Shown here piece by piece: positions 22,162 through 56,965 of a stretch of DNA of 64,000 nt (position 1 is the first letter of the stretch; each line of letters begins with the position of its first letter). Source of the stretch: Dehalococcoidia bacterium (GTDB lineage: Bacteria; Chloroflexota; Dehalococcoidia; Lucifugimonadales; JAGWBF01). The position numbers were made by a program, and so were the translations under genes. The notes under the pieces are model-generated. The model worked only from the letters and a program-made list of their open reading frames with translations, was not told the origin of the DNA and ran no database searches. The stretch spans positions 1,523,111 through 1,587,110 of the forward strand of contig OY760073.1 of the NCBI GenBank assembly GCA_963663025.1. Reading direction: 5' to 3'.

Positions 22162-22196
22162 ACAATCCAACCCCTGGTACTTTGGGCGCTGCTGGG

Positions 22197-22562
22197 TTCC
22201 AGGGTGGCTCTAACACAGGGGCGCCCGCCCCCCTTCGTACTTCGAGAGCCTCAGCACGAACGGAGGGGGATCAGGGCGAACGGGGGTGAGGCGGCCTGTC
22301 CCACCTCCGGGGTTTCCTGGATTGCGGCCTACGCCGCAATGACGAAAGGCGAGGCTGACGGGACGGGGCGTGTCGGACGCATTGCCTGGAAGTCGCTGTT
22401 TATGCCGAAAACCCGCGGCCGTCGTTGCGGCGTAGGCCGCAATCCAGAACGGAGCGCTGCCGGCTTCCAGGATGGCTCTAACACAGGGGCGCCCCCCTTC
22501 GTTCGTGCTTCGAGAGCCTCAGCACGAACGGTCGTAGGGGCGGGTTTCAAACCCGCCCCTAC
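22197..22562. repeat. Left REP cluster: CGTC-type inverted doublet (22317-22344/22420-22447), two CTTCGAGAGCCTCAGCACGAACGG units, and a GTAG palindrome (22534-22562)
   Basis: Read directly from the sequence. GTAGGGGCGGGTTTCAAACCCGCCCCTAC is a perfect GTAG-tagged hairpin; about 30 bp direct repeat at 22197 and 22465. Confidence 0.88.
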
Positions 22563-22589
22563 AGATGTCCGAATCGTCGGCGCGCCCAG

Positions 22590-25500
22590 CTAAGAGGTCG
22601 TGAACTGCGCCGCCGTGGCTAGCAGGTTGGCGTTCGTGCACCCGCTGTCGCTGTAGGCCGAGAAGGTGTACGCCGTGCTGGCGGTCAAGCCAGTGACGTT
22701 CACGCTCGTCCCGCTGACCGGCCCCGTACAGGTCGTCTTGCCCGTGGTCGTGGACTTGTAGTACCAGTCGCTGGTGTGGTTGGCGATGGTCAGCGTGGCC
22801 GTCGTGGCGGCGACGCTGGAGGAGGTCAGCTTGGCGTGTATCGTCGCCGTCACCTCGATCTTCATCGACTGGCCAGAGGACAACTCGGGCCAGTGGTTGG
22901 CCGACTGTTGGCGCGCCGCGTCGGCGATGCTCCAGCCGGTGCCGGTGGGCGTGAGCGTCTGCACGTTGCTAGTGGTGCTGTTCAGGTAGGCGGCATTGGC
23001 GGCGCTGGCGCTGACGTGGACGAAGTACGACGTGTTCGCGGCCAGTTCGCAGTTGCTCGAGCAGGTGAACTCGACCTGGCCGTTTGCAGGGGTCCCGCTG
23101 AGGGTCAGCGCGCGCGCCGTCGCGGACGGCGTGCCGTTGGACTGCCTGTCGTGGATGGCCACGGTGACGGCGCTGGCGTTGATCACTGCCGCGAAGTCCA
23201 CCGTGACGCTGGTCAGCTTGTAGATACCGGTCGTGTTGCCCGTGGTGAACTCCTGCGCATGAGCGTTGCCTGGGGCGCTTGGTCCGATGATGAGCAGGGA
23301 GCTCGCGGTCTCGCTCAAGTTGCTCACGGAGGCCACGTCGCCAACCAGCGTGGTGAACTGCGCCGCCGTCGCCAGCAGGTTCGCGGCCGTGCATCCGCTG
23401 TCGCTGTACGCCGAGTAGGTGTAGGCCGTGTTCTTGTCCAGGCCGGTCAGGTTCTTGCTCGTCCCGCTGACGGGGCCCTCGCACGTCGCGCCCGTGTTCG
23501 CGTGCTTGTAGTACCAGTTGCCCGTGTGGTCGGCGATGGTCAGCGTCGCCGTCGTCGCCGCAACGTTCGAGGAGGTGAGGCTAGGGGCGTTGACGAAAGC
23601 AATCTCCGCCACGTTCCAGTCGCTGTGGGAACCCCACGGATAACCACTGTCCTGGTAGTGACCGAACTCGACGCTCCAGCCGTTGCCGGATGGCTGGGCG
23701 GTCTCGGTCTCCGACGCTGCGTAAGCCCAGGCGTAACCGGGGAATGAGAAGGTGGTCAAAACCAGGAAATAGGTGGTGTCGGACGAGAGCTTGCAGCCGC
23801 TTCCCGCGCAGGTGAACGTCGTGTCGCTCCACGTGCTGATGGTCGGAGCGGTCCCGGCGAGCGTCGCCAGCGCCGTGGCGTCCGCTTCACTGGCGCTGGA
23901 GTACTCGCCGGTTCCCTTCATCGCGTGGAGCGTCGCCGTCACGCCATGGACACCGCCCTTCTTCCGTAGTGGCATGGTGACGCTCTTCAGGACGTAGCCG
24001 CCGGAGTTGGAGCCGGTGGTGAAGGCGACCGCCCCTTTATATTGACCGGAAATGGGAGAGTCTCCGCTCTTGGTACTGCCCAGGTTGGAGACGGAGGAGA
24101 ATGTGGTGAACCCTCCCGCCGCAGCCAGCAGGTTGCCCGTCGTGCAGCTGCTGTCGCTGTAGGCCGAGTAGGTGTAGGTCGTGTTGGCCGTGAGGCCGGT
24201 GAGGGCTTTGCTGGTTCCGCTGACCGGGCCATCGCAGGTCGCGCCCGCGCCCGTGTGCTTGTAGTACCAGTTCCCCGTGTGGTGGGCGATGGTCAGCGTC
24301 GCTGTCGTCGCCGCGACGTTGGAAGCGGTGAGCACAGGATTGGGAATGTTTTCGAAGACAACCTCGGCGAGGTTGTAGTCGGACCAACTGGCCCATGCCC
24401 GAGGATTGGGGGCATCCTCCTTATAGTGGCCAAACTCGATGTCCCAGCCATTGTCGGACGGCTGGGCGGTCTGCGTTTCTGTAAGCGCGTAAGCCCACTC
24501 GTACTTTCCGGTGCCGTCGAAGGTCGCCACCACGAAATAAACGGTGTTGGCCGAGAGGCTGCAGCCGCTGCCGGAGCAGGTGAAGGTCGTGTCGGTCCAC
24601 GTACTGGCGGTCGGGGCAGTACCCGAGAGGGTGGCGAGGGCCGTGGTGGACGGAGCGCTGGCCGCGGAGTACTGTCCTGTTCCGGCCATCGCGTGGAGCT
24701 TCAACTGGAGTCCGTTCGTGCCGCCGGATGCGCTGGTGCTCCTCAGCGGCACGGTGACGCCCTTCAGGACGTAGCCGCTGCGGTGGGCGCCAGTGGTGAA
24801 GGCAACCGCTTGCCTTTTGGCGGCGCTGACGTCCCCGGGGCCGGTCTTGGAGCTGCCCAGGTTGGAAACTGAGGAGGTCGTGGTGAACTGCGCCGCCGTA
24901 GCCAGCAGCGTTGAGCAACCGCTGTCGCTGTAGGCCGAGTAGGTGTAGGTCGTGTTGGTTATGAGTCCGGTGAGCGCTTTGCTCGTTCCGCTGACTGGGC
25001 CATCGCAGGTGGCGCCCGTGTTCGTGTGCTTGTAGTACCAATTGCCCGTGCGGTTGGCGATGTTCAGCGTCGCTGTTGTCAGGCCAACGTCCGAGACGGT
25101 CAACAGGATGATGGGTTCAATCAGCGGCGCCAGCGTAAAGGGCGAGCTGCCCCACTCGTTCGTGGTTCTGACCTTGATGTCATACGTTGCACTGTCGTTG
25201 ATGCTGTAGTCGGTGCCGCCAGCCGTCCATGACGTGATAGTGGCGGTAATGGTGCCGCCGGTATCGACGTTGGCGTCTTCGACGTCGGCGCAGAGGGTGT
25301 AGGCGCCCGTGAGGCCATTTACGCGCGTGGCGCACTCGATTTCGTAGCCCTTGCCGTACAACGGCGAAATCCATGACAGTGAAATGGATCCGGCCTGACG
25401 TGTGAACCAGATGGCGGAGGCGTGCGATGAATTCAGCTGCTTGGTGGGCTGGAGCGCCGGACGCGCGTTGGTTGCGGACGCCCAGTCACTGGCATCGGAG

Positions 25501-27240
25501 GGGTTAGTGTTCACCGCGCGCACCGCTACCAGGTAGGAACGGGTCCAGACCAAGTCACGATTGTTGCGGCTGTTCCGGTCAATGGTCAAGGTCGTGGTCG
25601 CGCCCGAATTCACCGAGCCGCATGACCACCACGTGCCCCAGCCGTCGGCGTCGGAGCAGGTCAAGTTGTAGCCGCCCGCGCCCGTCACCGCGGTCCAGGT
25701 TACGTGCAGTTTCTCGTCTTCCTGATAGTTGTCGCGCGTCACCGTCACCGACGCGGGCGCGACAAGCTGGCTCTGGGATTGCGCGGACGCGATAGATGCG
25801 CCCGACGACTGGACGGTGTTCAGCCAGCCGTGGGACGGCAACCGCGAGAGTTCGGTCCAGGGGCCGGCGATGTCTGCGTTGCGGGCGCGCACAGCCACGT
25901 AATCGATGGTCTTGGTCGTCGTGTAACGGTAGGAGGTGGCGGTGACCTTCTGCGCCACATCGTGCCAGTCGGAGGCGCCGGCCTCCTTGGCGCGGATATC
26001 GTAGCCGGTCGCATGGTTGACGGCGTCCCAGGAGATGTCCAGGTAGCCGTCGCCGGGCGTCACGCTGAGGCCGGAGGGCGCGGCGAGCACGGGGATGGCG
26101 GGAACAGCCTTGGCGAACCAGGGCGGGGCGTTGGGGGCGCCGACGCTCGCGCCGCCGCCGTTGACGGCGCGCAGGTGGTAGCGGTACTCCTTGCCGTTGG
26201 CCAAGCCGGTGAAGGTGTGGGACGTGGTCGAAGCGCTGCTGCCCGCGATGGCTGTCCACGGCCCCCAGCCAGACAGGTTTCCGGTGGAGGTGTGGTTGTG
26301 GTTGAGGTTGTACTCGTAGCCGGTGATGGACGAGTCCGACGGGTCGTCCCACGACAGGGTGATGCTGGCGTTGCCCACGGTTGCGGTGAGGCCGGTTGGC
26401 GCGGCCGGCGGCAGGATCACGGGATCTGGTATGGGGGTCGGCGTCGGCGTGGGCTCAGGCGTGGGAGTCGGTGTGGGCGTGGGTTTCGGAGGGGGCGCCG
26501 ACGGGCTCGCGGAGGCGAACCAGGGCGGGGCGTTGGGGGCGCCGATGCTCGCGCCGCCGGCGTTGACGGCCCGGACATGGTAGCGGTACTCGCGCCCATT
26601 CCTGAGGCCGCTGAAGGTGTGGGAGGTGGTGGAGGCGCCGCTGCCCGCGATGGCTGTCCAAGGCCCCCAGCCGGACAGGTTGCCCGTCGAGGTGTCGTTG
26701 TGGTTGAGGTTGTACTCGTAGCCGGTGATGGACGAGTCCGACGGGTCGTTCCACGATAGGGTGACGCTGCCGTCGCCCGCGGTTGCGGTGAGGCCGGTGG
26801 GCGCGGCGGGCGGCGTGGTCTCGGGCTGAATGACAGGCGTGTAGGGCCCGGCGGACGCGGAGTTGGTCCATCCGCCCCAGCCCTGGTCGTTGCCGGCGCG
26901 GACACCGACGATATAGGTCTTGGCATTGTCGGCGGTGAAGGTGAGGGTGTTGGTCGGAACGTTCCGGTGGTCGTCCACGGGAGCGTGCCAGCTTGCGCCG
27001 TCGTCGGTGGAGTAGGTTACGTGGTACTTGGTGGCGCCGGTCGGGGCATCCCAGGAGGCGGTCAGGCTGCCGTTGGCGCGGGAGAGGGAAACGGACTCAG
27101 GAGAGTCGGGGGGGGGGGGGCGACTTCGCCAGCGCGGGAGACGCGAAGAGAGCAACGGCGGCCAGGAGGAGCAGCGCGATCGGGGCGAGGAGGAGCAGGG
27201 CCGGTCGAGGTGATGTTATGGTGGCGCGTCGGATGTTCAA
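22590..27240 (-). CDS. Giant secreted FN3-repeat adhesin-like protein, frameshifted at a G13 tract just after the signal peptide
   Basis: GGAGG RBS and TTG 27240 give signal peptide MNIRRATITSPRPALLLLAPIALLLLAAVALFASPALA-KS. Span is 3n+1; removing one G joins it to the 1521-aa ORF. Contains two near-identical FN3 units, a PT linker, and four TATLTIA..WYYK..C.GPVSGTS..YSAYSDSGC units alternating with three SVSNL..FTTG domains. Confidence 0.85.
27108..27120 (+). repeat. G13 homopolymer tract
   Basis: 13 consecutive G counted; 12 would be in frame. Confidence 0.9.
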
Positions 27241-27310
27241 GGCATTGCCTCCCTTCGCACGGGCATCTACGGGCCCAGCTGCGCTCGAATGCGAGTCATT
27301 TACCCAGGCT

Positions 27311-27342
27311 GCATTATATCACAGCAATCATGGCGACATGAT
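27311..27342 (-). promoter_or_regulatory. Putative extended -10 promoter and palindromic operator upstream of the adhesin
   Basis: TGATATAAT on the minus strand (27313-27321) and ATCATG-N4-CATGAT palindrome (27327-27342) in an AT-rich patch. Confidence 0.4.
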
Positions 27343-27409
27343 AAATTCAAATATAAAATTCAGATTACGTTCCGTGTCTCAACGAGGGGATGCGCCGCCG
27401 GGGGCGTGT

Positions 27410-27820
27410 CCGTTCACCCTGAGGCTCTCGAAGGGGGAGCGGACAGAAGGGGAGGGCCTGGATCCTCGTTCGTACTTCGAGAGCCTCAGCACGAACGGAG
27501 GCGGGGCGGCCTAGCCGTTCGCCCTGAGGCTCTCGAAGGGGGAATGGGGTGGGGAAGGACGGCAGGCCGGCCCTTCCGTCACATCCCGGCCTGTCCCACC
27601 TCCGGGGTTTCCTGGATTGCGGCCTACGCCGCAATGACGGCGTGGGTTTTCGGCATAAACAGCGACTTCCAGGCAATGCGTCCGACACGCCCCGTCCCGT
27701 CAGCCGCGCTTTTCGTCATTGCGGCGTAGGCCGCAATCCAGAACGGAGCATTGCCGGATTCCAGGATAGCTCCGTCAGCAGGGCGACCTGTTCATGCTTC
27801 GAGAGCCTCAGCACGAACGG
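27410..27820. repeat. Right REP cluster: four CCGTTC..CTGAG..TCGAAG-family units and a CGTC-type inverted doublet (27612-27639/27714-27741)
   Basis: Shares long stretches with 22234-22531 in direct orientation, but the doublet spacer is inverted. Confidence 0.88.
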
Positions 27821-27867
27821 AAGGGGGAAGGACGGCCCTCCTTAGTGGAGTGAGGATGAAGGATGGA

Positions 27868-39759: not shown

Positions 39760-41217
39760 CTACCCCCGCAGGTTTGGGTGACGGGCTGCCTTGGCTTCGT
39801 CCAGGCGGGTGACCGGGGTGGTGTGGGGAGCGCCGGTAACCAGTTCGGGGTCCTCGGCAACTTCCCGGTCGATGGCCTTCATCACATCGATGAAAGCATC
39901 CAGGGTTTCCTTGCTCTCGGCCTCGGTAGGCTCGATCATCAGGGCTTCTTCGACGATGAGGGGGAAGTACATGGTGGGGGAGTGGAACCCGTAGTCCAGC
40001 AGCCTCTTGGCGATGTCCAGGCCCTTGACACCCTTGGCCCGCTGGTCCTTGGACGAGAGTATGACCTCATGCATGCACCGGCGGTCGTAGGGCAGGTGGT
40101 AGGTGTCCCTCAGCGCTTCCAGCAGGTAGTTGGCGTTGATCACCGCATCTCCGCTTATCTGCTCCAGACCCGATGCTCCCAGGCTCCGTATGTAGGTGTA
40201 CGCCCTCACCAGCACACCGAAGTTGCCGTGGAACCCGCCTACCCTTCCAATGCTATCGGGCGGAGACTCCAGAGAGTACACCTCCCCGCCGTTTTCCGTG
40301 TTCTTGACGACGATGGGCGATGGAAGATAAGGCAGCAGGGTGTCCGAGACGCATACGGGCCCTGAACCCGGACCACCTCCGCCATGGGGGGTGGAGAAGG
40401 TCTTATGCAGGTTGAGGTGCACAACGTCGAACCCCATGTGCCCCAGCTTGGCGCGACCTAGGAGAGCGTTCATGTTGGCGCCGTCGCCATACACCAGCCC
40501 GCCGGCCCGGTGCACCATGTCGCACAGACCGACGATGTCGTTGTTGAACAACCCCAGGGTGTTGGGCTGGGTAATCATCACACCGGCAAGCCTGTCCGAC
40601 GCCAGCTCTGCCATGCGGTCCATGTCCATGTTGCCCTTGTCGCTGGACGCTACGCTGACGACCTCGAAGCCAGCCATGGCGGCGGAAGCCGGGTTGGTGC
40701 CGTGGGCGCTGTCGGGTATAGCCACCACGGTGCGCTTATCATCGCCCCGCTGCTTGTGGTATTCCCTGATCATCAGCATGCCGCACAGCTCACCCTGGGC
40801 ACCGGCCAGGGGCGCCAGGCTGGTCCCCTTCATGCCAGTGATCTCCGCCAGGTAACCTTGGAGCATGTACATCAACTGCAGGCTTCCCTGGGCCTGCCCG
40901 TCGGTCTGGCGAGGATGGGAGGCTGCAAAGCCGGGCATGAAAGCTATCTCTTCGTTCAACTTGGGATTGTACTTCATGGTGCAGCTGCCCAAGGGGTAGA
41001 AGTTGGTGTCTATGGAGTAGTTCAGCCGGCTTAGGTTGGTGAAGTAACGCACCAGCTCCGGCTCGCTGAGCTCGGGCAGGGGCAAGTCGTCCCTTAAGAG
41101 ATGGTCTCCGGGAAGGAGCTGCGCGGGAACATCCAGGTCCGGAAGGTTGGACCCAATCCGACCCGGGGTGCTCCGTTCCATCAAGGTGCGCCTGTCAAAG
41201 GACGGCAGCGCGCTCAT
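39760..41217 (-). CDS. gcvPB: Glycine dehydrogenase (decarboxylating) subunit 2
   Basis: PLGSCTMKYNP, SAHGTNPASA and HLNLHKTFSTPHGGGGPG motifs. Confidence 0.96.
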   Translation of the reverse strand: MSALPSFDRRTLMERSTPGRIGSNLPDLDVPAQLLPGDHLLRDDLPLPELSEPELVRYFTNLSRLNYSIDTNFYPLGSCTMKYNPKLNEEIAFMPGFAASHPRQTDGQAQGSLQLMYMLQGYLAEITGMKGTSLAPLAGAQGELCGMLMIREYHKQRGDDKRTVVAIPDSAHGTNPASAAMAGFEVVSVASSDKGNMDMDRMAELASDRLAGVMITQPNTLGLFNNDIVGLCDMVHRAGGLVYGDGANMNALLGRAKLGHMGFDVVHLNLHKTFSTPHGGGGPGSGPVCVSDTLLPYLPSPIVVKNTENGGEVYSLESPPDSIGRVGGFHGNFGVLVRAYTYIRSLGASGLEQISGDAVINANYLLEALRDTYHLPYDRRCMHEVILSSKDQRAKGVKGLDIAKRLLDYGFHSPTMYFPLIVEEALMIEPTEAESKETLDAFIDVMKAIDREVAEDPELVTGAPHTTPVTRLDEAKAARHPNLRG

Positions 41218-48235: not shown

Positions 48236-49645
48236 ATGAAGATGTACATAGCCGGACAGTGGGTGGATAAGGCTGCCAGAATGCCCGTCCTCAACCCCTA
48301 CGACTCCGTCGAAATCGACACAGTGCCGAGGGGAGATGCTGGCGATGTGGATGCGGCCATCTCCAGCGCCGTGGTGGGCGCCGACATCATGGCGAAGATG
48401 CCGGCCTATGACCGCTACCTGATCATCAAGAAGACCGCCGACCTGATCGCTGAGCGGGCCGAGGAACACGCCCGAATCCTGAGCATGGAGGAGGGGAAGA
48501 CCCTCACCGAAGCCAGGGGTGAGATCGGCAGGGCTGTGCAGACTCTCACCATGTCGGCCGAGGAAGGGAAGCGCATCCACGGCGAGACTATTCCACTGGA
48601 TGCGGCTCCGGGCACCGGCCGGGCCTTCGGGTTCACCATACGGGTGCCCTGCGGCGTCGTGGCTGCCATATGTCCCTTCAACTTCCCGCTGAACCTGGTG
48701 TGCCACAAGGTCGGTCCCGCCCTGGCTGCGGGCAACGCGGTGATCATCAAACCTGCCTCGGACACTCCGCTGTCGGCGCTGAAGCTGACCGAGGTGCTGC
48801 TGGAAGCTGGCCTGCCCCCTGAGGCGGTGCAGTGCGTCACCGGTCCCGGCGGGGAGATAGGCGATGCCCTGAGCACCGACCGGCGAGTCAGGAAGATTTC
48901 CTTCACAGGCAGCAGGGATGTGGGCGAGCGCATATGCCAGAAGGCCGGTATCAAGAAGGTGACCATGGAGCTGGGCTCCAACAGCCCCATGGTCATCATG
49001 CCCGACGCCGACCTGGACAAGGTCGCCCAAGCTACCATCGCCAGCGGCTACTCAAACGCGGGGCAGGTGTGCATCTCCACCCAGCGGGTGCTGGTCGATG
49101 CCAGGGTGTACGGGGAGTACCTGGATGTCCTGAAGCCACAGGTGGAGCGGATGAACGTGGGGAACCCCCAAGCCCAAGGAACGCAGATGGGGCCCATGAT
49201 ACGGGAGTCCGACGCCATACGCGTGGGCGACTGGATACAGGAGGCGGTGGACTCAGGCGCAAGGGTGGTGGCCGGAGGCGACAGGGAAGGCACCCTGCAT
49301 GCTCCTACTGTCGTGGCTGACGTAACGCCCGGAATGCGCATATCCTACGACGAGGTGTTCGGGCCTGCGGTGGCTGTCAGCCACTTCAAGGACATCGACG
49401 AAGCCATCACCATGGCCAACGACACCATATACGGCCTGTCGGCGGGCCTGTTCACCCAGAACCTGGAGTGGGCTATGCGGTTTGCCCGGGAGGTACATTC
49501 GGGCAACCTGATGATCAACTCCAGCCCCCAGTTCAGGGCGGACCTGATGCCCTACGGCGGGCTGAAGGACAGCGGCATGGGCAAGGAAGGCCCCTACTAC
49601 GCTGTACAGGAGATGACCGAGCTCAAGATGGTCGCCTTCCACTGA
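48236..49645 (+). CDS. Aldehyde dehydrogenase family protein
   Basis: PFNFPLN, FTGS, ELGSN, GQVCIS, EVFGP and PYGG motifs. Confidence 0.92.
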   Translation: MKMYIAGQWVDKAARMPVLNPYDSVEIDTVPRGDAGDVDAAISSAVVGADIMAKMPAYDRYLIIKKTADLIAERAEEHARILSMEEGKTLTEARGEIGRAVQTLTMSAEEGKRIHGETIPLDAAPGTGRAFGFTIRVPCGVVAAICPFNFPLNLVCHKVGPALAAGNAVIIKPASDTPLSALKLTEVLLEAGLPPEAVQCVTGPGGEIGDALSTDRRVRKISFTGSRDVGERICQKAGIKKVTMELGSNSPMVIMPDADLDKVAQATIASGYSNAGQVCISTQRVLVDARVYGEYLDVLKPQVERMNVGNPQAQGTQMGPMIRESDAIRVGDWIQEAVDSGARVVAGGDREGTLHAPTVVADVTPGMRISYDEVFGPAVAVSHFKDIDEAITMANDTIYGLSAGLFTQNLEWAMRFAREVHSGNLMINSSPQFRADLMPYGGLKDSGMGKEGPYYAVQEMTELKMVAFH

Positions 49646-49726
49646 TCCGGGGGCCGAAAGGTCCCGACCGGGTCAGGCCAGCGCTTGACGGGAGTACTTG
49701 CCCTTCCTCAGGCGGAAGGGGGCCAT
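49562..49726 (+). repeat. 165-bp junction repeat A: true ALDH 3' end + hairpin + orphan 3' end of the GT2 gene
   Basis: Aligns without gaps to 51079-51243, with 12 substitutions by manual count. Confidence 0.95.
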
Positions 49727-49805
49727 ATTTTCATCGCGTCTGGTTATTTATTGCCCGACCCGTCTTGGCAACCACAGCCTAATTCAGTCGGCTAGCCGGT
49801 ATGTG

Positions 49806-50846
49806 CTACTGCGACGCCAAAGCGGCGGTGTAGACCTGTTGCATCCGCAGAAGCTCTTCATCGTTGAAGCACTCCCACATCTTGATCCCATTGTCCGCTA
49901 TCTCCACCAGGTCCTCAACGCTCGTCGACGAAAAGTCGAGCAATGTTGGGTTGACCAGCGCTACGTAACGCGGGTGCCCGCTGGCGAACTCGGTGATGCA
50001 AGCTCGGCTATTGTCGCTTAGCCCCCCGGTCTGGGACCCGATGACCGACGCGAAGATGGGCACGTAGCTTTCTTGGGAAATGCAAGCAGTCACAGAGTCC
50101 GACATTCCAAAGCCCTGGGTTGCCGTGGATCCCAGCAACGCGGCGTAATCTTCGTCCGTCAGCGCCTCCTGGATACAGGCGGCCTCGGACTCCGGAATCA
50201 TGCCGACAATGTCCGTCGCCGCCGACGTATTGACGTCCAGAGCGGCTTGTATGCGGGCTAGGTACCCCACCTTCTCCACCGGGGTCATGCAGTTGTAGAA
50301 CTCCAGGGCATACGGCCGCGTTGCCGAAGTTTCGTGAATTTGGCCCGGTGGTGTCATTCCGAGGCCCGTCAGGACCGCGAGGGGACTTTCTCTACCGACC
50401 CTGATCATGCATGCGCGGGTGTCGGAGGTCCATCCGGCCTGCAAGTCGAGGAAGGCGATTCCGAACACCACGAGGTTTTCTGGTTTGGCACACTGGAATA
50501 TCGGCAATACAAGGTTTTCACCGCTGGCCGTCAGAATCAACAGAATCGGCTCGTTGGACATTTTCTCGTAGGCAGCATCTCCGATGGCCGTACGAAGGCA
50601 GGAGGTCTCGGCTTCGGAGAAGAGTGCCAGCACGTCCTTCCCTGTCGTCGTCGAGGTGAGCCTCAGCTCCTCGAGAGCCGGAGTGGCAGTGGGCGGAAGG
50701 GGCGTTGGAGCTGGCGTTGCGGTTGGTTCAGGTGTTGCGGTCGGTTCAGGCGTTGGTGTTGGGTCGGACCCACAGGCGGCAGCTATCAGGACCAGCAGGG
50801 TTATCAGCGAAACTACCCAAAGCCGTTGTCTCCTAATCATCAGCAT
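49806..50846 (-). CDS. Lipoprotein with PT-rich linker and repeated Cys-containing helical units
   Basis: Lipobox AAAC; PTPTPEPTATPEPTATP; recurring ETSCL/DTRACM/EAACI/NSRACI units resembling ETKACL in 36732-37682. Confidence 0.8.
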   Translation of the reverse strand: MLMIRRQRLWVVSLITLLVLIAAACGSDPTPTPEPTATPEPTATPAPTPLPPTATPALEELRLTSTTTGKDVLALFSEAETSCLRTAIGDAAYEKMSNEPILLILTASGENLVLPIFQCAKPENLVVFGIAFLDLQAGWTSDTRACMIRVGRESPLAVLTGLGMTPPGQIHETSATRPYALEFYNCMTPVEKVGYLARIQAALDVNTSAATDIVGMIPESEAACIQEALTDEDYAALLGSTATQGFGMSDSVTACISQESYVPIFASVIGSQTGGLSDNSRACITEFASGHPRYVALVNPTLLDFSSTSVEDLVEIADNGIKMWECFNDEELLRMQQVYTAALASQ

Positions 50847-51078
50847 AACCTTTACCTTCCTAAGATGCGGGGTTTTCGGCACACTGCTCAATCTTGGCGA
50901 TGACACGCTCCCTGTCCCGCGCGGCGAGGCGGTGCATATCCCTGATCGCCTGCGTCACCCATTCGATTTGCATTCCCTCAAAGAGACCCTTCACTCTAGC
51001 AAATTTAGAGAAAGTGAGTCAAGAGGCCGATGCCCGCAACCCCCCTGGGCGGTCTTCGCTCCGCAGCCGTTCGACGAT

Positions 51079-51243
51079 CTGAAAGACAGCGGCATGGGCA
51101 AAGAAGGCCCCTATTACGCCGTCCAGGAGATGACCGAGCTCAAGATGGTCGCCTTTCACTAATCCCGGGACCGGAGGGTCCCGACCGGGTCAGGCTAGCG
51201 CTTGACGGGAGTACTTGCCCTTCCTCAGGCGGAAGGGGGCCAT
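51079..51243 (+). repeat. 165-bp junction repeat B: orphan ALDH 3' end + hairpin + true 3' end of the GT2 gene
   Basis: Encodes the identical peptide LKDSGMGKEGPYYAVQEMTELKMVAFH*. Confidence 0.95.
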
Positions 51244-51957
51244 GTTCGACAGGAGAAAGGCCCCCCACTTCAGCACCTGGGCGAGGCCCAGCTTGCTTTC
51301 TCCCTCGGTGCGCCCGATAAAGGTGATGGGCACCTCTACCACCTTCAGGCGCTGGCTGATAGCCAGGAGCATGGACTCGACCTGGAACTCGTAGTGGTTG
51401 GCCGTAGACCGCTCCACCACAAACTGCGCCGCCGTCGCGCTATAGACCCGGTAGTTGGTTGTGGACTCGCGAGGTGTGCCGAGGAGATAACGGGTCATGA
51501 AGTTAGCCAACCTGCTCTGCACCCTCCGATGCCATTCCCAGTCCCTCACCCCGCCTCCGGAGATGTATCTGCTCCCCGTCACAAGATCGGCCTCCTGGGA
51601 CGTAGCGGTTTGAAGCAGTTCCGGGAGGTCGGCGGGGTCGTGGGAGCCATCTACATCCATGGTGACGATGTGCTGGCAGCCTTCATCCAGGCAGGACTTC
51701 AGGCCGTCGCGGATCGCCGACCCCAACCCCCGGACTCCATGCCGGGACAACAGGGATATCCCCGGATATCTTGAGGCCAGCTCCCGCGCAACGTCGCCGG
51801 TGCCGTCGGGGCTGTCATCATCCACAACCACGGTCCATAGCTCGCCGGGCAACGATAGGGCCTGGAGCCTGTCCACCAATCCGGGCAGGTTCTCGGCTTC
51901 GTTGTATGTCGGCAGCACCAGTCCTATCTCAGGCAAGATGGTCTCTCCCCAGCGCAC
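51190..51957 (-). CDS. GT2 polyprenol-phosphate mannosyltransferase (DPM1/Ppm1-like)
   Basis: LPTYNEAENL, VVDDDSPDGT, MDVDGSH, GSRY and RTEGESKL motifs. Confidence 0.88.
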   Translation of the reverse strand: MRWGETILPEIGLVLPTYNEAENLPGLVDRLQALSLPGELWTVVVDDDSPDGTGDVARELASRYPGISLLSRHGVRGLGSAIRDGLKSCLDEGCQHIVTMDVDGSHDPADLPELLQTATSQEADLVTGSRYISGGGVRDWEWHRRVQSRLANFMTRYLLGTPRESTTNYRVYSATAAQFVVERSTANHYEFQVESMLLAISQRLKVVEVPITFIGRTEGESKLGLAQVLKWGAFLLSNMAPFRLRKGKYSRQALA

Positions 51958-51981: not shown

Positions 51982-52989
51982 CTACAGGCTCCCTTCGGCC
52001 CGGGCCCACACCAGCGCCGCAGCGCCCAGGAGCCCGATGTCATCGCCCAGAGATGTCACAACGATCCTGTACCCCAGCTTGCGGATATGGGCCATGGCGT
52101 TCTCGTTGATGTACTTCTCCACCATGGGCCGCAGGTAGTCCCAGTTCTGGGACACGCCGCCACCCATAACAATCGTGTCCGGGTTGAACAGATGGAGAAC
52201 GTTCACCAGCCCCACACCCATGGCCCGGCTGACCCCGTCTAGGAGCTGCTGGGAAGCCTCGTCCCCACCTCTGGCAGCCTGGAAGACATGTTCCGCAGTT
52301 AGATTCTCCAGGTCGCCACCAACCATGCCAGCCAAGACCGGCCCATTCCCCGCCTGGGCCAGGCTTCGGGCCGCTTCGGCGATCGCTGTACCCGAGGCGT
52401 AGCTCTCCAGGCACCCTCGATGTCCGCACTTGCACGGGAGCCCCGAGGCGTCAATGCACATATGGCCGATCTCCCCCGCCATCCCGTAGGCCCCTTCTAC
52501 GAGCCTTCCGTCGTCAACGATACCCCCGCCTATGCCCGTGCTCTGGGTTATGTAAACGAGGGTCTTCGACCCCTTGCCCACGCCGTAGGTGTATTCCCCC
52601 AGGGCGGCCAGGGTTGCATCGTTGCCCGTAAGGACGGGCCAGAGCCCCTTGTCCAGCCAAATCTTCTTGAACGACACTCCGTCCAAGTTCATGAGGTTGG
52701 GTGGGGCGTACATGATGCCGGTGACCGGATCGACGGGGCTTGCCACCGCCAGGGCGATGCCTGCGACCTTGCCCCCATCATCAGTGGACAGAGCTTCGGA
52801 GATCAGGTCATTGACCCGGCCGACGATCACATCCTTGGGGTCTTGGGATCCCGTGGGGACGCGCCCTCTCCAGGCGATGTGCCCGGCCCGGGTGACCAGG
52901 GCCGCCCGCACCCAGGTGCCACCCAGGTCGATGGCAAGGGCAAAGGGCCCCCCATCGGTACCCTGCTCGCGGTCCAACTCCTCTACCAT
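51982..52989 (-). CDS. ROK family sugar kinase (glucokinase-like)
   Basis: IDLGGT, NDATLAALGE, STGIGGG and GEIGH...CKCGHRGCLE motifs. Confidence 0.92.
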   Translation of the reverse strand: MVEELDREQGTDGGPFALAIDLGGTWVRAALVTRAGHIAWRGRVPTGSQDPKDVIVGRVNDLISEALSTDDGGKVAGIALAVASPVDPVTGIMYAPPNLMNLDGVSFKKIWLDKGLWPVLTGNDATLAALGEYTYGVGKGSKTLVYITQSTGIGGGIVDDGRLVEGAYGMAGEIGHMCIDASGLPCKCGHRGCLESYASGTAIAEAARSLAQAGNGPVLAGMVGGDLENLTAEHVFQAARGGDEASQQLLDGVSRAMGVGLVNVLHLFNPDTIVMGGGVSQNWDYLRPMVEKYINENAMAHIRKLGYRIVVTSLGDDIGLLGAAALVWARAEGSL

Positions 52990-53011
52990 GTCGCCCATGC
53001 CCAGGAGTCTG

Positions 53012-56770: not shown

Positions 56771-56811
56771 ACGTTCCCACGGCGTTGACGCATCAACACA
56801 CTTCCGGCCCT

Positions 56812-56965
56812 GTGGGGACGCGCCCCTCCAGGCGATGTGGCCAGCACGGCTAACCAGCGCCGCCCGCACCCAGGTGCCGCCCAGGTCGATGGCAAGGGCA
56901 TAAGGCCCCCCATCGGTACCCTGCTTGCGGTCCAACTTCCCTACCATGTCGCTTGCGGCCAGGAG
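56812..56965 (-). pseudogene. Orphan, diverged copy of the ROK gene 5' end (direct repeat of 52853-53007)
   Basis: MVGKLDRKQGTDGGPYALAIDLGGTWVRAALVSRAGHIAWR versus MVEELDREQGTDGGPFALAIDLGGTWVRAALVTRAGHIAWR; followed by a 1-nt deletion and loss of similarity. Confidence 0.92.

Follow-up and report, generated by a model that had tools for sequence, protein, structure and literature searches.

Duplication of an aldehyde dehydrogenase/glycosyltransferase gene junction around a lipoprotein gene in a Dehalococcoidia genome

Introduction

How can a lipoprotein gene come to lie between two copies of one gene junction, while both genes that meet at this junction stay whole? The question is raised by a locus of a Dehalococcoidia bacterium (Chloroflexota; Lucifugimonadales; JAGWBF01), found in assembly GCA_963663025.1, contig OY760073.1. 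The window analyzed here comprises 64,000 nt of this contig (positions 1,523,111 to 1,587,110 of the forward strand), and coordinates are positions in the window unless another genome is named. At this locus, the junction between an aldehyde dehydrogenase (ALDH) gene and a convergent GT2 glycosyltransferase gene is present as two direct repeats, referred to as the left and right arms, which enclose the lipoprotein gene, referred to as the cargo (Table 1). An initial annotation of the sequence proposed that both arms had diverged under purifying selection in separate genomes and were joined recently by Campbell-type integration of a unit of about 1.5 kb carrying one gene. In this study, we compared the arms, the cargo and the flanking genes with related genomes, metagenome contigs and assembled sequencing runs, and weighed this proposal against its alternatives.

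Results

The two arms differ by silent changes only

The two arms align without gaps over 165 bp at an offset of 1517, with 12 substitutions and no indels, and the sequence occurs exactly twice in the 2.35-Mb genome. The six differences in the ALDH tail are all synonymous (AAG/AAA twice, TAC/TAT, GCT/GCC, GTA/GTC and TTC/TTT), the ALDH stop codon differs stop to stop (TGA/TAA), the single difference in the GT2 tail is synonymous (CTG/CTA), and the other four, at 49649, 49653, 49657 and 49659, are intergenic. The repeat and each of these codon, stop and intergenic changes had been listed in the initial annotation, and all of them were recovered. Folding bore out its further claim that a hairpin is retained in both copies, since each intergenic version forms a stem with a 4-nt loop (-24.2 and -18.5 kcal/mol).

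The coding differences were silent in eight of eight cases, against 2.5 of 8 expected when the same substitution types are placed randomly (P=1.4e-5). Under the same random-placement model, the ALDH tail alone, with 7/7 silent changes, gave P=4.3e-5. All 12 differences fall within the first 118 bp of the arms, which leaves a final 47 bp without any change (P about 0.018 for such an end); four congeners deviate from this 47-bp stretch at 8-10 positions, gaps counted. The duplication leaves two orphan tails, that of GT2 in the left arm and that of ALDH in the right arm.

Beside the cargo lies a truncated parE-type gene, which provides an internal control for decay at this locus, because its changes are mixed, unlike those of the orphan ALDH tail. 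The private changes of this stub relative to five relatives comprise four silent and five amino-acid changing ones. Full-length parE relatives at six loci match Pfam ParE_toxin, and full-length relatives are preceded by a -35 box similar to that of the predicted promoter upstream of the stub. To judge from the sequence, this promoter would now drive the lipoprotein gene. The duplicated-junction pattern is real and no chance product, and the silent-only differences, set against the stub, support the proposal that the arms behave as alleles of two lineages under purifying selection, which is not what decay in place would give.

The site is empty in the congeners and the cargo is mobile

In all five other genomes of the genus, ALDH and GT2 are joined across a single junction copy, so the site is empty there. 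The segment between the arms measures 1352 bp and is a mosaic of the lipoprotein gene and the truncated parE-type gene with its promoter-like site. Sequence comparison supports horizontal mobility of the cargo. Its protein is 85-93% identical in seven genomes from seven other families (301 genomes of the order were searched) and has an 88% identical paralogue inside this genome, and the four congeners drawn for comparison hold distant paralogues or none. Among GTDB species, 11 cargo loci were found, all titled Dehalococcoidia, and a search of IMG/VR for a viral carrier returned no cargo relative. Homology among the cargo loci begins near the start codon and stops 0-55 bp past the stop codon, and no attC-like end motif of the integron kind, shared among them, was seen by eye.

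The cargo was found to be spanned by a two-copy direct repeat at 3 of 11 other loci versus none of 60 randomly chosen positions in this genome; the loci surveyed overlap between two surveys, and related loci are not independent. The three repeats consist of the 5′ end of a gene (125 bp), a gene start (38 bp) and intergenic sequence (108 bp). A fourth candidate, in genome G146, was left out of the count, as its arms are a tRNA-Met and a tRNA-Asn, two different tRNAs. Since the arms around this lipoprotein gene change with the target, the arm is local to each site and no part of a fixed element.

The cargo protein gave no match in Pfam, NCBIfam or Atlas. Its family shows 14 invariant columns, eight of which are cysteines. 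The alignment-based structure model is all helical, with a predicted local distance difference test (pLDDT) score of 85.8, and the single-sequence model is poor (pLDDT 44). A Foldseek comparison of the model with the PDB gave no fold match at E<=0.001.

Among the sequencing runs, X9 contains this strain, in long contigs with 0 other letters at a depth of 8.4-8.7. Because X9 may be the source sample, it is no independent sample. In runs X9 and X10, the lipoprotein region is covered far deeper than its flanks, the extra depth consisting of near-identical fragments that belong to other organisms. X1 and X2 yielded relatives of the locus and parts of the cargo gene, and nothing more. Runs X3-X8, with shares of 0.05-0.07, say nothing about the habitat.

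Host recombination genes and the proposed history

In a Pfam analysis of 10 neighbouring open reading frames, neither the unit nor its surroundings showed a gene for an integrase or transposase or a gene of phage origin (no genome-wide search for transposase families was made). Two tyrosine recombinases (PF00589) are encoded in the whole genome, far from the unit and its like, and their context, one following dprA and topA, points to XerC/XerD-like proteins in both cases. No PF00239 resolvase was found genome-wide, at a completeness of 94%. The frames of ComEC and DprA are intact. With no integrase in the unit and ComEC and DprA present, host homologous recombination is therefore favoured as the route of entry.

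The left-copy ALDH tail differs from those of the congeners G001, G002, G005 and G003 at 5, 4, 4 and 5 positions, respectively, and the right-copy tail at 9, 8, 7 and 8. Private changes number one in the left copy and five in the right copy, and the hairpin of G002 is of the left type. These counts weakly indicate which copy is foreign: the left arm is probably the resident allele, and the first 118 bp of the right arm probably came from another lineage.

On balance, we favour a history in which host homologous recombination joined the working alleles of two lineages, with the exchange in the 47-bp end. A foreign segment of 1352 bp would have entered by host homologous recombination together with a second junction copy, which was likely still a working allele in a sister lineage. 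The incoming allele would be represented by the first 118 bp of the right arm, and strand exchange would have taken place in the last 47 bp. The working GT2 gene would accordingly end on incoming DNA at its second-last codons, with the resident GT2 tail orphaned at the left. The orphan ALDH tail would be undecayed because the proposed event is recent, and both target genes stay whole because the duplication covers both stop codons and the hairpin. Intact target genes probably explain the survival of such events. As to the form of the donor, a circle (single crossover plus conversion) and a linear piece from a unit-bearing lineage (two exchanges) appear about equally likely. The identical end calls for either conversion or a unit-bearing linear donor, each of which fits at least as well as a plain circle crossover, since the latter would leave differences on both sides. 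The Campbell-type integration of a one-gene unit of about 1.5 kb put forward in the initial annotation thus survives in part: the empty site in five of five genomes and the mobile cargo agree with it, but the unit also holds the parE stub, and a plain single crossover does not predict the identical 47-bp end. The proposed mechanism holds no account of the origin of the first cargo-arm junctions.

Several observations weigh against this history. The donor allele was not found: none of the five congeners has a complete ALDH gene with the right-copy allele (the genomes searched included no second strain of this species), an exact-pattern scan of JGI metagenome contigs gave 0 matches, and the ALDH relatives there reach at most 75% identity among the best 80 of 548. 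Distances to the congeners show no break along ALDH, GT2, ROK or TlpA, and the exchanged tract therefore cannot be mapped. Private changes at 5 to 1 are few in number, and their excess in the right copy is not significant by itself. Eight of the 11 other cargo loci, as well as the genome's own paralogue, are without such arms. In an insertion census of this genome against G005, which covered the first 2.0 Mb of the 2.37-Mb G005 sequence, overlaps of at least 90 bp were found in only 5 of 68 insertions here and 2 of 21 in G005, which makes insertion with a long duplication a minority route; one of the five is REP-like (repetitive extragenic palindrome), and three lie inside the window. Competence genes are common, being detected in 10-11 of 14 control genomes, and are no evidence in the present case. 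Neither a circle nor an empty-site joint was found among the X9 and X10 contigs, from which rare forms are dropped.

Alternative explanations

The arms could also have arisen in the reverse order. The unit would then have been born at this site with identical arms. Later, an ordinary homologous tract from a sister lineage would have taken the place of ALDH and of the outer 118 bp of the left arm, ending in the last 47 bp. In this case, the left copy would be the import, and the right copy would preserve the earlier resident allele as a fossil. Both the identical 47-bp end and the silent-only differences are predicted by this order of events, units with identical arms are known (107 bp; 38 bp), and the ftsK duplication of G005 described below has the same polarity. 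We nevertheless regard it as rather improbable, since the left copy stands at the normal distance of congeners while the right copy has the longer branch. That ALDH is not discordant with GT2, ROK and TlpA argues in the same direction, weakly, as an equally distant sister import would stay invisible.

It is quite unlikely that the unit is the remnant of an integrase element with its att site in the 3′ end of GT2 or ALDH, bringing a replacement tail as e14 does, whose integrase was lost or acted in trans. Such an element would yield the outcome seen at e14/icdC, a working and an orphan tail with synonymous differences, and the 47-bp identical stretch is close in size to the tRNA-Ser att repeat of this genome (42 bp). 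However, no integrase lies within the unit or nearby, and the cargo stands at unrelated targets with unrelated arms or none. Many different genes have been struck (ALDH/GT2, ROK, coaBC/gcvPB, ftsK and an MFS gene), and the lack of a cargo relative in IMG/VR counts against such an element as well.

An assembly artefact, whether a tandem join of two strain haplotypes or a chromosome with an empty site accompanied by a separate circle, is very improbable. It would account for the left-copy letters that the X9 right-junction contig has at its last seven variable sites, and in contig data, a tandem structure and an empty chromosome with an equal-copy circle look alike. Against this, both X9 junction contigs stand at flank depth (left, 49697-49818, depth 7.8; right, 50757-51243, depth 8.17; flanks, 8.39 and 8.62), the flanks contain 0 other letters, the assembly graph forks exactly at the arm end, the seven letters, which lie between identical stretches of 32 bp and 47 bp, are what a collapsed k=31 bubble would be expected to give (a real conversion in the X9 sample being the less favoured reading), and the same architecture was found in other assemblies. 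Two strain haplotypes assembled in tandem, the counter-explanation raised in the initial annotation, were not seen as far as the contigs show, the junctions being at genome depth.

There is hardly a case for the orphan ALDH tail being translated and selected as the end of a 192-codon frame (50584-51162, plus strand), which does run open into the tail, since this frame is mostly an antisense shadow of the lipoprotein gene and the parE stub, its counterpart in G297 runs out into unrelated sequence, and the empty sites and other units would be left unexplained.

Table 1. Coordinates of the features of the ALDH/GT2 unit in the window.
Feature	Position	Strand	Description
ALDH gene	48236..49645	+	469 aa, intact; Pfam Aldedh, E 1.6e-156; last 28 codons open the left arm
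Left arm, 165 bp	49562..49726		Working ALDH tail 49562-49645, hairpin 49646-49672, orphan GT2 tail 49673-49726 (minus strand)
47-bp stretch common to both arms	49680..49726, partner 51197-51243		From the arm alignment
Cargo lipoprotein gene	49806..50846	-	346 aa; predicted signal peptide with AAC-GSD, Pro/Thr linker and helical Cys-rich domain
Truncated parE/relE-type toxin gene	50860..50973	-	First 37 codons and stop; upstream of the cargo gene; decaying
Sigma-70-like promoter upstream of the parE stub (predicted)	50993..51022	-	TTGACT-18-TAGAGT; sole such site in 49500-51400
Right arm, 165 bp	51079..51243		Orphan ALDH tail 51079-51162 (plus strand), hairpin 51163-51189, working GT2 tail 51190-51243
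GT2 glycosyltransferase gene	51190..51957	-	255 aa, intact, convergent with ALDH; Pfam Glycos_transf_2, E 1.3e-25

Other duplications in this genome and in G005

A ROK gene 1.6 kb from the ALDH/GT2 unit has its 5′ end in two copies (52850-53007 and 56809-56965; 158 bp, 88%). This duplication encloses mcrB, mcrC and a gene of 258 aa without a Pfam match, a cargo of the restriction-modification (RM) type that is missing from all five congeners. The ROK arms differ by eight silent and eight non-silent changes in 43 codons, and the orphan is frameshifted. At 35460-39885, both tails of the convergent pair coaBC/gcvPB are duplicated around a gene for a META-domain lipoprotein, in the order working coaBC tail, HI1420-type antidote gene, orphan gcvPB tail, META lipoprotein gene, orphan coaBC tail, GmrSD gene and working gcvPB tail. 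These arms are older and show amino-acid changes. G005 and G001 show the empty form of this site, whereas G002 has the META gene beside gcvPB without the GmrSD gene. In G005, the META gene stands at another place, with a local overlap of its own of 144 bp.

The tail of an inositol-phosphate synthase gene is duplicated around a methyltransferase locus, with six of six differences silent. In G005 (C1:933231-936085), a 348-bp ftsK tail is present twice, with a GmrSD gene between the copies; all but one of the 12 differences are silent, and the last 111 bp are identical. Identical arms of 107 bp, made up of the tail of an MFS gene and a promoter region, flank two small genes at G000:C1:1229773-1230724. 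This unit is a candidate for a very young one, and its two genes look toxin-antitoxin-like by eye. As parallel cases, it and the units with the ftsK and inositol-phosphate synthase tails speak for the history favoured above. Diverged two-copy repeats also surround accessory DNA at G000:C1:420819-425119 (258 bp, 86%), where G001 has a duplication of its own, and at G000:C1:1046179-1047632 (119 bp, 87%), for which the empty form is found in G002. The unit counts include neither the REP-like overlap at G000 1661906 nor the intragenic repeats and paralogues among 15 repeat candidates.

Two further repeat regions were noted. A tRNA-like sequence (tRNA-Arg by eye) at G000:C1:417891-418616 is followed by a degenerate, near-full copy 658 bp later. 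The region 22186-27830 is repeat-rich: it holds numerous short dispersed repeats, and a paralogue of 2.6 kb (83%) is located at G000 1218524-1221096.

Discussion

The mechanism of insertion with long target duplication is unsettled. The presence of several such units in one genome, of which two enclose a lipoprotein gene and no nuclease at a convergent junction, points to a host-driven route. The codon-level pattern marks the arms as alleles of two lineages, and acquisitions can be put in order where their arms differ in age. Tentatively, and with more doubt than confidence, we suggest that these Dehalococcoidia may maintain a general gene traffic free of integrases, in which lipoprotein, toxin-antitoxin and defence genes capture 40-350 bp of a local gene end, often a whole convergent junction, as a homology arm with which to move in and out across species. 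If this were true, long target duplication would be a process of host recombination and no property of restriction enzymes, and the states of the arms (identical, silent-only or decayed) would serve as a clock that dates each acquisition. The ALDH/GT2 unit itself remains a scar of gene gain and involves no new machinery.

Insertion with long target duplication was reportedly first described by Nobusato et al. in 2000. In the part of the later account available to us, it is described for RM genes, by which the cases had been selected, with target duplications of 25-423 bp that are 86-100% alike (Table 3 of that paper), mostly in naturally competent species and often across start or stop sites (Furuta, Abe and Kobayashi 2010, PMC2853133). 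The cause proposed in that part is a property of the RM system such as double-strand breakage, and the release and re-entry of such inserts are without experimental support there (PMC2853133). So far as these descriptions go, the ALDH/GT2 unit resembles such insertions in its insert of less than 20 kb (here 1352 bp) without a mobility gene, in the empty site of relatives, in its long imperfect direct repeat of more than 30 bp of unique host sequence (here 165 bp in two copies), and in repeats that cover stop or start sites and keep the target genes whole. It differs in that no RM gene is present and the cargo is a nuclease-free lipoprotein gene. Because it lacks the RM gene that defines the class, we describe the unit as working like a long target duplication and do not file it under this name. 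The main text of the 2010 paper, in its available part, is without the word "synonymous" and does not interpret the arms at the level of alleles. In the open-access literature, we found no account of the pattern for cargo other than RM genes or for Dehalococcoidia.

The prophage e14 in icd of Escherichia coli, as far as the consulted part of the source describes it, is a 15-kb element with site-specific, SOS-induced excision and one fixed target, and it leaves the tail pseudogene icdC (PMC13626634). Its working gene end on one side, orphan end on the other and largely synonymous differences resemble those at ALDH/GT2. Unlike e14, the ALDH/GT2 unit measures 1.5 kb, is free of an integrase, duplicates two convergent gene ends, and has its cargo at other targets elsewhere. 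Laboratory insertion-duplication mutagenesis relies on host recombination at a homologous anchor and needs no integrase. Homology-facilitated illegitimate recombination, in the excerpts at hand, left orphan tails in the type VI secretion system arrays of Vibrio cholerae with displacement of resident DNA (PMC5361080), and the pneumococcal merodiploids made by transformation, from a similarly partial source, span 100-900 kb and form at insertion sequence repeats (PMC3784515). The ALDH/GT2 unit shares with these three processes, to the extent that they are described there, a short homologous anchor at which foreign DNA enters, displaced or duplicated pieces that remain, and the lack of an integrase. 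Unlike illegitimate recombination and merodiploid formation, it duplicated 165 bp of unique core sequence with no loss of core. The ALDH/GT2 unit is an insertion scar of a known kind, and its new aspect is a cargo without a restriction enzyme.

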